From NCBI RefSeq assembly GCF_024223415.1, contig NZ_CP100500.1: a stretch of 64,000 nucleotides of DNA; one strand, written 5' to 3'. The position numbers were made by a program, and so were the translations under genes. The notes under the pieces are model-generated. The model worked only from the letters and a program-made list of their open reading frames with translations. It was not told the origin of the DNA and made no database searches. The DNA is from Escherichia coli (GTDB taxonomy: Bacteria; Pseudomonadota; Gammaproteobacteria; Enterobacterales; Enterobacteriaceae). Shown one piece after another: positions 49,178-55,194 of the stretch (its first letter is position 1; the number at the start of each line of letters is the position of its first letter).

Positions 49178-49289
49178 AGGGAGACAAAAAAAGCGCCCGC
49201 AGGAGATTTAACGGTACTTACTCCTCTTGCTGATTTCCTTATTTTTCAATAAGTAAACAAAAACAAGGGGAGCAAATTATCACAAATAA

Positions 49290-50285
49290 TTACTGGTCGA
49301 TGGACAGTTTATGGACACTTTCAGCCAGCGGATTAAAGCTGATCGCATCCTGTAAAAAGTCCGGTGAAAAATGCGCATACGTCATCGTTTGCTGAATCGT
49401 GGCGTGACCCAGGATCCTCTGCAACGTGACGATGTTCCCGCCGTTCATCATGAAATGCGTGGCGAACGTGTGCCGCATGACATGCGTGGCCTGCCCTTTG
49501 GGTAAGTCGGGCTTCACCTCCTGAAGGATCTCCCTGAAACTGAGATAATCAACCTGATATAACAGGCCGGTCCGGCGGGTTTTAATTAACGGCACAACGG
49601 AATCAGCTACAGGAACCGAGCGCGATTTCCCGTTCTTTGTGTTAAAGAACGTCACCCTGTTACCCACGATGTGTTCCCCGCGAAGCGTTGACGCCTCTTT
49701 CCATCTGGCCCCGGTCGAAAGGCACAGAATGGCAATGCGTCGTGCATCACCCTCAAGCCGTTTCAGAAGGCGATCAATCTCGTCATCTGAAAGAAAGGCC
49801 ATTTCTGTATTCTGAACCTTGAGTTTACGTATTCCGCGCACAGGGTTTTCGTTATGATAAACCTCCGCGTCAATTAACAACGAAAACATCGCAGATAAGG
49901 CGCACAGGTCGCGATTGATACTGGACGGCATCAGTCCCGCCTGCAACTTATCCGAGCGATACTCAATCATGAATTTTCGTGTCATCTGGCTGGCGCGCGG
50001 GTCCCCCATTTCACGTATCACCTTCTCCAGTCTGGTTCTGTAGGTATCACCATATGCCTGATTACGACCATCAAGCATCCACCACACCTCAATCAGTTCT
50101 GATAACCGCCGTTGATCGGCGGGCCTTGCCTGCCACGGGTTATTGTGGAAATTCTGAAGAACGTATCTTTCGAATTCCTGCGCCTTTGATTTCAGGGTGA
50201 AAATCTTACGAATCCGCCTTCCTCCCGCCCCCTGAGGCCTTACATCAACCTGATAACGTCCGTCTTTGAGTTGCTTAATCGACAT
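49290..50285 (-). CDS. int: P2-family tyrosine integrase
   Basis: ORF track 49290..50294; likely start MSIKQLKDGRY behind GGAGG; catalytic region HVMRHTFATHFMMNGGNI...ILGHATIQQTMTYAHF resembles P2 Int. Confidence 0.9.
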   Translation of the reverse strand: MSIKQLKDGRYQVDVRPQGAGGRRIRKIFTLKSKAQEFERYVLQNFHNNPWQARPADQRRLSELIEVWWMLDGRNQAYGDTYRTRLEKVIREMGDPRASQMTRKFMIEYRSDKLQAGLMPSSINRDLCALSAMFSLLIDAEVYHNENPVRGIRKLKVQNTEMAFLSDDEIDRLLKRLEGDARRIAILCLSTGARWKEASTLRGEHIVGNRVTFFNTKNGKSRSVPVADSVVPLIKTRRTGLLYQVDYLSFREILQEVKPDLPKGQATHVMRHTFATHFMMNGGNIVTLQRILGHATIQQTMTYAHFSPDFLQDAISFNPLAESVHKLSIDQ

Positions 50286-50354
50286 GATCAGCACCTCCGA
50301 CGGATAAACCTGTTAACCCCTGCTTACTGAACGCCGCCCGTTCAATATACAGCG

Positions 50355-50696
50355 TCAGCCAGCATTGCGGCCTGATTGGGGTGATTTTTGGGTATTGCGG
50401 GTTGAAACCTGATCGTCCTCCGACTGCGTGGAGCCATCAAGAGAGAGAGCCGGGGCGATCTGACCGGCAACAGGTAGCGTCTTATCTTTGATTAACCAGA
50501 ACATATATTTTTCAAACCGATCCACTTGAAGGACGGCCTCAACAATCTTTGCTCTGGCGATCTTTTGCCCTGACTCATAATTCCTGACAGTTGCCAGAGA
50601 TAACCCTGTAATATCAGCAAATTGCTTTTGAGTTAGCCCTTCCGTCTTGCGTATCAAACGCAACTTTTTCGCATAGTCTATTGACAAGATACTCAT
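50355..50696 (-). CDS. C: P2 C-type immunity repressor (HTH)
   Basis: 113 aa; HTH LTQKQFADITGLSLATVRNYESG; C-terminal GQIAPAL...SPQSG resembles my recollection of P2 C. Confidence 0.8.
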   Translation of the reverse strand: MSILSIDYAKKLRLIRKTEGLTQKQFADITGLSLATVRNYESGQKIARAKIVEAVLQVDRFEKYMFWLIKDKTLPVAGQIAPALSLDGSTQSEDDQVSTRNTQKSPQSGRNAG

Positions 50697-50799
50697 TTGG
50701 GGATTAATCTCCTACAAAAGATAACCGTACGGTTATCTTTACAAGTCATCAAAAATCATCAAAAGGCGCAACAAGCGCACCAATGCAAGAGGATAACAA
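50697..50799. promoter_or_regulatory. Divergent Pc/Pe switch region with operator-like repeats
   Basis: Perfect 18-bp palindrome GATAACCGTACGGTTATC (~50720-50737) and tandem 10-bp direct repeats TCATCAAAAA/TCATCAAAAG (~50746-50765) between C and cox-like starts. Confidence 0.6.
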
Positions 50800-51321
50800 A
50801 TGCGGGAGATTATTGCCGACAAAGAGTTATCTGGCGCTCAACCGGTTCAGGATGATGGCGCGGACAATGAATTCATTGAAGCTGCCAACGACAACGAACA
50901 CCTGGAAACCAAAACCAGACCGTCCTACAAAAAGGGCGCAACCCTACGACTGGACGGCCCAGTCGCAGGACTTGTGTCACTGGAAAAAGGGGCTGCCTAT
51001 CTGGGGGTAACAAAATCTGCGCTACGCGCCGCCATTCAGCGCGGGCAGATGCCGGGTCACAAAACGCGCTCAAATCCCGAAGATGAAAAGTCAGACGGTA
51101 CATGGTGGTTTAACGCCAAAGCCTGGGACGAACTAGCCGACGAACTACTGGAGTGCGAACCGCCAGAGTGGCACAACTGGAAAAGCTACTGGACGTACGA
51201 CCGCAAGAAAAGAAAGTTTTCACCGGCAAACAAGGAGGACTGCCAGACCGTTAAAGGTAAGCAGGTTTACTCCCCCAGAGTTTCAAAACTGGAGCAACTC
51301 AAAAACAACCAGCCCGGCTAA
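50800..51321 (+). CDS. cox: Cox-like excisionase/regulator with N-terminal extension
   Basis: 173 aa, RBS AGAGGA; central HTH LEKGAAYLGVTKSALRAAIQRGQMP and GTWWFNAKAWDELADELLE resemble P2 Cox, which is ~91 aa. Confidence 0.65.
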   Translation: MREIIADKELSGAQPVQDDGADNEFIEAANDNEHLETKTRPSYKKGATLRLDGPVAGLVSLEKGAAYLGVTKSALRAAIQRGQMPGHKTRSNPEDEKSDGTWWFNAKAWDELADELLECEPPEWHNWKSYWTYDRKKRKFSPANKEDCQTVKGKQVYSPRVSKLEQLKNNQPG

Positions 51322-52529: not shown

Positions 52530-52609
52530 ACAGGCGTTTAACACCAGAAACAACCAGAAACATCCGCTCACGCGGAGGGGTTGACCCGCTCAAAAAGGAG
52601 AAATCAGGA

Positions 52610-54966: not shown

Positions 54967-55194
54967 ATGGCAAACCGCAAACAACAGCGCGCATACGCTG
55001 CGCGTCGTCACATCCAGACTGAAATCAACCGCAGACTTTCCCGCGCATTCCGCGTCGCGCATATCATGCACATCAATATGCTGCATGAGCGCAGCCACGC
55101 ACTGTCAAACATGTATTCCGCCGCTGTATTCAGCTACCTGGCGGATGACCTGCGCAAGCTGCAGGACCTCATTAACCAGCACTACCACCACTAA
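54967..55194 (+). CDS. Hypothetical early-operon protein
   Basis: 75 aa, basic, RBS GAAGAGG. Confidence 0.5.
   Translation: MANRKQQRAYAARRHIQTEINRRLSRAFRVAHIMHINMLHERSHALSNMYSAAVFSYLADDLRKLQDLINQHYHH

Follow-up and report, generated by a model that had tools for sequence, protein, structure and literature searches.

The characterized operators of P2-type C repressors are non-palindromic direct repeats of 8–10 bp (PMC1904268, PMC2995052), and those of P2 and WPhi have been experimentally defined at the positions named O1 and O2 (PMC1904263, PMC1904268). The crystal structure of P2 C shows a symmetric dimer that resembles palindrome binders and is structurally close to the dimeric dyad-binding repressors of the HTH_3 family (PMC2995052). 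A symmetric dimer in the crystal that nevertheless has direct-repeat operators presents a puzzle (PMC2995052), for which the proposed solution is that only one of the two helices in the dimer makes specific contacts, while the other binds non-specifically (PMC2995052). The cox-boxes of P2 are repeated every 10–11 bp and cover the promoter Pc (PMC3936717), and sites of the Cox/Apl/Xis type are head-to-tail repeats one turn apart, located between the face-to-face promoters of P2-like phages (PMC7498355). Here, we describe the corresponding region in a 64-kb stretch of Escherichia coli DNA (the window), in which the 103-bp gap at 50697–50799 forms the entire spacer between the divergent start codons of a C-like repressor gene and a Cox-family gene, and carries a perfect palindrome followed by a tandem repeat. 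The region is most likely an ordinary P2-type switch, with a repressor site and a Cox site adjacent to each other, in which the palindrome most likely serves the C repressor as operator O2.

The locus shares with the switches of P2, WPhi and P2 Hy dis (Peduoviridae) the order int–C–cox beside the attachment site (att), a small helix-turn-helix (HTH) homologue of C and a Cox-family protein. As in P2 and WPhi, the −35 hexamer of the lytic promoter Pe would lie in the first C codons, candidate repressor sites are found in the Pe spacer and just after the −10 hexamer, about three turns apart as in WPhi (34 bp), and a helically phased array of boxes is located between O2 and cox, over the candidate Pc. 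Whereas P2, P2 Hy dis and WPhi have two non-palindromic direct repeats as operators, the candidate O2 of the window is a perfect 10–4–10 dyad, one arm of which recurs at O1. The window also differs from P2 and WPhi in its operator sequence and recognition helix, in a Cox protein of 173 amino acids (aa), compared with 91 in P2, and in presumed boxes that read AYAAR instead of TTAAA(G/C)NC(A/C).

In the arrangement that we propose, and which we regard as probable when taken as a whole, two promoters face each other and the lytic Pe would read rightwards into cox. The palindrome, located at approximately the start site of Pe, would act as O2, each 10-bp arm being read by one HTH of a symmetric C dimer. 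A weaker and imperfect dyad, O1, would fill the Pe spacer three helical turns from the O2 centre, so that two C dimers on one face of the DNA would shut off Pe. Cox would bind head to tail to four units phased by one turn, covering the lysogenic promoter Pc and switching off C; the tandem 10-bp repeats would be two of these four Cox units and would lie outside the repressor operator. Which protein would bind where, the promoter assignments and the cooperativity are read here from the sequences, their conservation and co-variation, and the homologies of the two proteins.

The palindrome as a candidate C operator

The initial annotation placed a C/cox intergenic switch in this region, which agrees with the homologies of the flanking genes. 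The C protein of the window aligns with P2 C across the whole fold and matches the P2 C structures (PDB entries 2XCJ/2L49) over residues 8–92 with E = 3.7e-15 (phmmer); it also matches the C genes of P2, WPhi, P88 and L-413C (tblastn), and the divergent neighbour matches the Pfam family Phage_Cox. The identity of the window C is 34% to P2 C, 49% to WPhi C, 64% to PhiECO5 C and 88% to the 'immunity repressor protein GpC' of vB_EcoM-569R5. The closest sequenced phages are vB_EcoM-569R5 and vB_EcoM-705R2 (GenBank ON470599 and ON470623), with C 88% identical.

An 18-bp perfect palindrome had been reported in the spacer. The sequence GATAACCGTACGGTTATC is present at 50720–50737 and is perfect, but it is the inner part of a longer one: the perfect palindrome extends to 24 bp (AAAGATAACCGTACGGTTATCTTT) and is the longest perfect palindrome in the window. 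This length was reached in none of 100 dinucleotide-preserving shuffles of the window, and 22 bp was reached in two of the 100.

The C–cox spacers of relatives, taken from phage, E. coli and IMG/VR records, reveal how this element changes. In the group A relatives both 10-bp arms are kept while the 4-bp centre drifts between GTAC, TTTT, ATTT and GTTT. In two group A members, L024 and L025, both arms are altered together, from AACC to ACTC, giving AAAGATACTC-N4-GAGTATCTTT. The PhiECO5-type relatives (group B) have another inverted repeat with the same position and geometry, TCTTCACC-N4-GGTGAAGA, and within this dyad, (T/A)CTTCACC-N4-GGTGAAG(A/T), the outer pair again varies on both sides. The recognition helix of C reads SLATVRN in the window and group A versus SVGTIGN in group B.

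The palindrome has a counterpart in the proposed Pe spacer. The 18-bp spacer carries a copy of the O2 arm according to type, AGATACTC in the window, AGATAACC in 569R5 and TGTTCACC in group B, and the matches of O2 arms to spacers score 11.7 of 16 for cognate versus 10.0 for non-cognate pairs (p = 9e-6). The left arm of the candidate O1 (50687–50694) matches the left arm of O2 at six of eight positions, and both O1 arms are identical to those of the relative L039, the O2 of which is AGATACCC-GTAA-GGGGATTG. A direct-repeat relation does therefore exist at this locus, between the left arm of the palindrome and the Pe-spacer site, and not in the TCATCAAAA repeats. From the O1 centre to the O2 centre downstream the distance is 32 bp, which makes three helical turns. 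In P2 and WPhi, O1 and O2 occupy these same positions, in the Pe spacer and after the −10 hexamer, with spacings of 22 and 34 bp, respectively. Because the arms are kept, change in pairs, co-vary with the type of C and have a cognate site in the Pe spacer, the O2 operator of C is the most likely role of the palindrome.

The Pe hexamers themselves are inferred. TTGACA occupies the −35 position in nearly all of 35 operator-type clusters of related switches, the layout TTGACA-N18-TA...T is repeated across relatives with the −10 variants TATCCT, TAACCT and TATTCT, and the annotated Pe −35 of P2 also lies inside the first codons of C, at the very start. An exact 10-bp direct repeat, TCCTACAAAA, is found at 50710–50719, in the −10/start region of Pe, and at 50923–50932, inside cox; it is probably due to chance.

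In a sliding comparison of two prophages, L001 from group A and L006 from group B, the 3' end of C and everything to the right from 50754 are approximately 100% identical, and identity is only 42–75% between 50455 and 50745. This divergence indicates that the palindrome belongs to an exchangeable cassette together with the DNA-binding part of C. The immunity cassette spans approximately 50455–50745 with sharp borders and comprises the N-terminal two thirds of C, Pe, O1 and O2, while the C-terminal tail of C is common to prophages of different C type. The same pair of prophages bears on the possibility that a protein other than C binds the palindrome, either Cox, through its additional N- or C-terminal segments, or a host factor. 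The Cox protein of the window is unusually long, with 173 residues and extensions, which would give such an idea some footing; however, L001 and L006 have nearly identical long Cox proteins and unrelated palindromes, GATAACC versus CTTCACC, which differ exactly where C differs. Since nearly identical Cox proteins accompany unrelated palindromes, Cox is not the protein that sets the palindrome sequence, and we give binding by a protein other than C hardly any weight.

It is improbable, but deserves consideration, that the palindrome acts as a nucleic-acid hairpin, either as a 5' stem-loop that stabilizes the Pe transcript or, in the Pc leader, as an attenuator or roadblock immediately ahead of the ribosome-binding site of C. 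The palindrome can form a perfect 10-bp stem in either transcript, with a folding energy of −19.2 kcal/mol (z = −5.7) for the plus-strand RNA of 50717–50800, and UUUUGU comes after the stem on the minus strand. Two observations on the arms would also fit a hairpin and weigh against an operator: the paired arm changes preserve the stem of an RNA or DNA hairpin, and the change of GGTTAT to GATTAT (GATTATC) in several right arms still allows a G–U pair in the minus-strand RNA. On the other hand, a hairpin does not require a lone copy of the arm in the Pe spacer that varies with the type of C, the arms vary with the C recognition helix inside one mosaic cassette, and the position of O2 is that of the experimentally defined C site in P2 and WPhi (PMC1904263). 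The stem is also not a conserved requirement, because 12 of the 35 operator types have fewer than six of eight symmetric positions at O2 and P2 has three. A hairpin could still accompany the proposed operator as a side effect, or an added effect, of the palindrome.

To place the dyad within the family, O2 symmetry was scored with 8-nt arms and a 4-bp centre, against shuffled controls, across the 35 operator-type clusters, which derive from the 80 closest C relatives and the reference phages and are biased towards relatives of the window C. A symmetry of at least 6/8 is found in 23 of the 35 operator types (4.6% of shuffles), at least 7/8 in 13 (0.4%) and 8/8 in five (0.03%); the window has 8/8 arm pairs. 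In most operator types O1 and O2 have the same right arm, which corresponds to the classical 'direct repeat', and the symmetry comes from the left arm of O2. In P88_4B11 even the 15-bp 'direct repeats' have the form of quasi-dyads, ATGCC-N6-GGCAT, and the O1 of WPhi, GTAACC-TATT-GGTGAC, is a dyad at five of six positions. In the IMG/VR contigs L046–L049 the Pe region is identical to that of WPhi, including the WPhi O1 half-site TATTGGTGAC, and a perfect inverted repeat, GGTAATC-AATG-GATTACC, replaces the second direct repeat at the O2 position.

The searched literature, with subscription-only papers outside its reach, yielded no dyad-symmetric operator for a P2-type C protein, and the dyad-symmetric main operator is most likely a variant that this literature does not describe for the P2 C family. 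The layout is not peculiar to the phage of the window but recurs among the operator types of the surveyed relatives. We tentatively suggest, with somewhat less than even confidence, that the C repressors of the P2 family may be dyad binders in general, that the 'direct repeats' of P2 and WPhi may each represent the one well conserved arm of a dimer site, the two sites being separated by about three turns, and that the clade of the window may retain the undegraded state with a fully symmetric O2. If this is the case, it would lend natural support to the model of Massad et al., in which one helix binds specifically and the other non-specifically, and would explain the binding of WPhi C to a single 'half-site'. 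The puzzle of the symmetric dimer could be approached through a natural series in one protein family, from a perfect O2 dyad through one surviving arm to P2, in which no symmetry is detectable, and the matched pairs of recognition helix and arm would be useful for decoding specificity.

The contrast drawn in the initial annotation between the direct repeats of P2 C and the inverted repeats of 186 CI is in agreement with published work (PMC1904268, PMC2995052), and the window resembles 186 in having an inverted repeat at the lytic promoter, the palindrome being located at around +1 of the candidate Pe, and in its proposed face-to-face promoters. The Apl sites of 186 are direct repeats with a spacing of 10–11 bp, which are found at att as well as between the promoters (PMC7498355, PMC1904268). 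Unlike the 113-aa P2 C homologue of the window, however, the CI of 186 is a two-domain protein of approximately 190 residues that forms a large oligomer, and 186 has a CII-dependent promoter and distal operators that flank the switch, whereas a second AGATAACC-N4-GGTTATCT dyad with at most three mismatches is found neither in the prophage (the 40.7-kb stretch L050) nor in the window. Two GATAAC look-alike half-sites were considered as distal operators and rejected: that at 50598 is not kept in the 88%-identical relative, and that at 50823 is invariant even with a different type of C and therefore reflects coding constraint. The likeness to the dimeric HTH_3 proteins 434 cI, P22 c2 and C.Esp1396I lies in mechanism only: the two arms of an operator are read by a symmetric dimer in consecutive major grooves, and in the case of C.Esp1396I two neighbouring dyads are bound cooperatively. 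Outside the HTH, sequence similarity is weak, and spacing and partners differ.

The phased array and the candidate Pc promoter

The tandem repeats stand as described in the initial annotation: TCATCAAAAA (50746–50755) and TCATCAAAAG (50756–50765) are adjacent and match at nine of ten positions. Adjacent 10-mers with at most one mismatch occur four times in the window versus 1.3 ± 1.2 expected, and the tandem repeat alone is not beyond chance; the other three, each with a single mismatch, are CACCAGAAAC/AACCAGAAAC at 52542, TGCACAAATT/TGCACAATTT at 59794 and CCGTGCCAGT/CCGTACCAGT at 61656. The repeat carries weight because it is conserved within a phased array of four 10-bp units, ACAAGTCATC, AAAAATCATC, AAAAGGCGCA and ACAAGCGCAC, and falls within units 1–3. 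This array is the sole chain of at least four A[AC]AA[AG] motifs at 9–11 bp spacing on both strands of the window. No chains of the stricter ACAA[AG] pattern occur in the window, because units 2 and 3 read AAAA and the looser pattern is needed.

The motif AYAAR (ACAAR or ATAAR), every 10 bp and at the start of each of the four units, is kept in 13 distinct relatives. One relative, L023 (IMG/VR 2541047944_000005), has five 10-bp units between O2 and cox, with an additional ACAAACCAAA, which shows that the length of the array varies in steps of whole helical turns. A long Cox is accompanied by this array even at a C identity of only 52% (L095 and L100), while phages with a 95-aa P88-type Cox have another 10-bp array, ATAAGCC, in the same place and paired with several C types. 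P2 itself has four phased units at the same position, CTAAAAGGCA, TTATAAGACA, TTAAACGCAA and TTCATGAGGG, over its annotated Pc. The four-unit array is most likely the binding site of Cox.

The initial annotation had combined the palindrome and the TCATCAAAA repeats into one hybrid operator used by C. The two elements are only 5 bp apart, and P2-type C proteins are documented as direct-repeat binders (PMC1904268). Against this combination, the tandem repeats share no sequence with the palindrome arms and are degenerate (CCAAAACAAA/CCATCACAAG) in the 88%-identical relative with unchanged arms. They also lie outside the C cassette and are nearly identical across C types that have a long Cox, but are replaced by another array where Cox is short; the palindrome tracks the DNA-binding part of C and the repeats track cox. 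The repeats resemble helically phased sites of the Cox/Apl/Xis type (PMC3936717, PMC7498355), and the two elements are therefore read as the sites of two proteins side by side; a hybrid operator appears very improbable.

A further reading takes the A-rich array as the architecture of Pc only, namely its −10 hexamer, spacer and bent A-tract DNA, with Cox acting elsewhere or with little sequence specificity. The motif is short, its information is mainly in ACAA, the candidate Pc −10 lies inside the array, and the proteins of the Cox/Apl/Xis class are noted for relaxed specificity (PMC7498355); the chance level of the tandem repeat alone favours this reading too, as does the failure of the boxes to match the P2 cox-box. 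We nevertheless consider it rather unlikely, since no other place in the 64-kb window has four units in exact 10-bp phase, an entire further unit has arisen in one relative and the sequence of the boxes tracks the Cox lineage in at least two lineages. Furthermore, a related phased cluster is present in the P' arm of attL, on the integrase side, where P2 Cox has been proposed to act in excision (PMC3936717).

In a four-unit phased profile scan of the 37.7-kb prophage on both strands, this attL cluster is second only to the switch array, and three diverged P' arms retain a pair of xCAAAT boxes at a distance of 10 bp. Its assignment as a second cluster of Cox boxes is suggestive only. No match to the IHF consensus WATCAANNNNTTR was found in the repeats by eye.

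The candidate Pc would run opposite to Pe. Its −10 hexamer falls in the second TCATC, and the variants GATGAT, GATGGT, GAAGGT and GAATGT keep A at position 2 and T at position 6; CACCAA, the complement of the candidate −35, is invariant among close relatives. The −10 hexamers of the candidate Pe and Pc are 49–50 bp apart, compared with 55 bp in P2; in P2-type switches the two promoters are 40–60 bp apart.

Several other observations weigh against the proposed arrangement of operators, promoters and Cox boxes. The AYAAR boxes are unlike the P2 cox-box consensus, matching it at no more than 5–6 of eight positions, and the box motif is short and A-rich. The attL cluster scores 11.6 and the next candidates 10.9 and 10.5, in AT-rich DNA. 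The candidate O1 is poorly symmetric in the window (4/8). A consensus promoter scan of the intergenic region called neither Pe nor Pc, because neither proposed −10 is near consensus; the promoter assignments therefore rest on homology of position, and that of Pc, read from the sequence, is weak.

A small conserved inverted repeat, GGCGC-AACAA-GCGCACC, lies in the candidate Pc spacer and was scored as terminator-like on the minus strand. In L039 one pair is swapped on both sides, from G–C to A–T, and in L037 a mismatch is repaired to T–A; the folding energy is ordinary (z = −1.3 to −1.6).

Immunity type, features and prophage context

Immunity classes are set by the identity of C, with at least 95% within a class; a new class would have a C below 95% identity to the members of those described and a spacer or operator that does not align with theirs. 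PhiECO5 of UTI89 represents the class tentatively numbered IX by Nilsson et al. in 2011 (PMC3448106). The initial annotation had considered a distinct immunity type, which is plausible given the C identities listed above for P2, WPhi and class IX; neither the recognition helix nor the operator arms of the window match the class IX type or the operators documented for P2 and WPhi. In this comparison, which covered P2, WPhi and class IX but not class VIII (PhiECO4), class X (PhiECO6), P2 Hy dis or the other earlier classes, the specificity is probably distinct from all three and common to the 569R5-type phages. The borders of the cassette are of importance when superinfection immunity is predicted for the numerous P2-like prophages in E. 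coli, while for genome annotation the result is mostly reassuring, as the region appears to be an ordinary P2-type switch.

PhiECO5 shares with the window the serS–dmsA insertion site, the integrase family, the long Cox, the ACAA array and the geometry of the switch, but its C is 64% identical and its O2 arms read CTTCACC instead of GATAACC. The phages vB_EcoM-569R5 and 705R2 have identical O2 arms, the same recognition helix except for a V-to-I change and an insertion beside dmsA; unlike the window, they have TTTT as the O2 centre, so that the perfect palindrome is lost, a perfect AGATAACC as the left arm of O1 and a degenerate tandem repeat. No functional study of either phage was found in the searched literature. 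The coordinates of the features are collected in Table 1.

Table 1. Features of the switch region and its surroundings, in window coordinates.
Feature	Position	Strand	Details
att core	49189–49203		AAAAGCGCCCGCAGG, 15 bp; second copy at the serS end (L050 37666–37680)
Possible second Cox-box cluster	49253–49292	Plus	attL P' arm, beside integrase arm-type sites
P2-type tyrosine integrase gene	49290–50294	Minus	Pfam Int_N and Phage_integrase matches
C-type immunity repressor gene	50355–50696	Minus	Open reading frame, 113 aa (WP_000025789.1); start codon 50694–50696; Pfam HTH_3, E = 4.3e-9
Candidate Pe −35	50681–50686	Plus	TTGACA; within the first codons of C
Candidate weak operator O1	50687–50706		Imperfect dyad AGATACTC-ATTT-GGGGATTA; in the Pe spacer
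Candidate Pe −10	50705–50710	Plus	TAATCT; 18 bp after the −35
Candidate main C operator O2	50717–50740		Arms AAAGATAACC and GGTTATCTTT (10 bp each), centre GTAC (4 bp); starts at about +1 of Pe
Phased array, proposed Cox boxes	50741–50780	Plus	Four 10-bp units
Candidate Pc	50755–50783	Minus	−35 TTGGTG (50783 to 50778), 17-bp spacer, −10 GATGAT (50760 to 50755)
Small inverted repeat	50765–50781		In the candidate Pc spacer
Long Cox-family gene	50800–51321	Plus	173 aa; Pfam Phage_Cox PF10743, E = 1.5e-8, residues 56–129

The long Cox protein, named 'Cox family DNA-binding protein' in RefSeq, matches phrog_23196 over its full length with E = 1.6e-92, whereas the Cox proteins of P2 and P88 comprise 91–95 residues. 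Its Cox domain is flanked by an acidic N-terminal extension of approximately 55 residues and a basic C-terminal extension of approximately 45 residues, and the protein has its own PHROG. The N-terminal extension is kept as protein among relatives. A PDB sequence search with the long Cox gave no match.

The order at the locus is dmsA, att, integrase, C and then the divergent Cox-family gene. Between dmsA and serS lies a complete P2-like prophage, which carries genes for replication, capsid and tail as well as Ogr, as seen in the identical sequence of E. coli DG341-1. TGGAC arm-type integrase sites are present in both att arms. The att core sits within the terminator hairpin of serS, and integration therefore rebuilds this terminator. 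The same att site is used by PhiECO5 of UTI89 and by the 569R5-type phages, and the relative L005, with the same switch, is inserted beside selD instead.

In the early region of the prophage, RefSeq annotates a 75-aa 'derepression protein' at approximately 54967–55194 of the window (L050 6048–6275); this name usually denotes an anti-repressor of the satellite P4 that targets P2 C. Beyond the window, the stretch of approximately 3.4 kb between ogr and serS (L050 34300–37650) is annotated with only a Hok/Gef gene and a short hypothetical gene, and contains two near-identical terminator-like hairpins of the form GCCCGCC..GCGGGCATTTTTTT.

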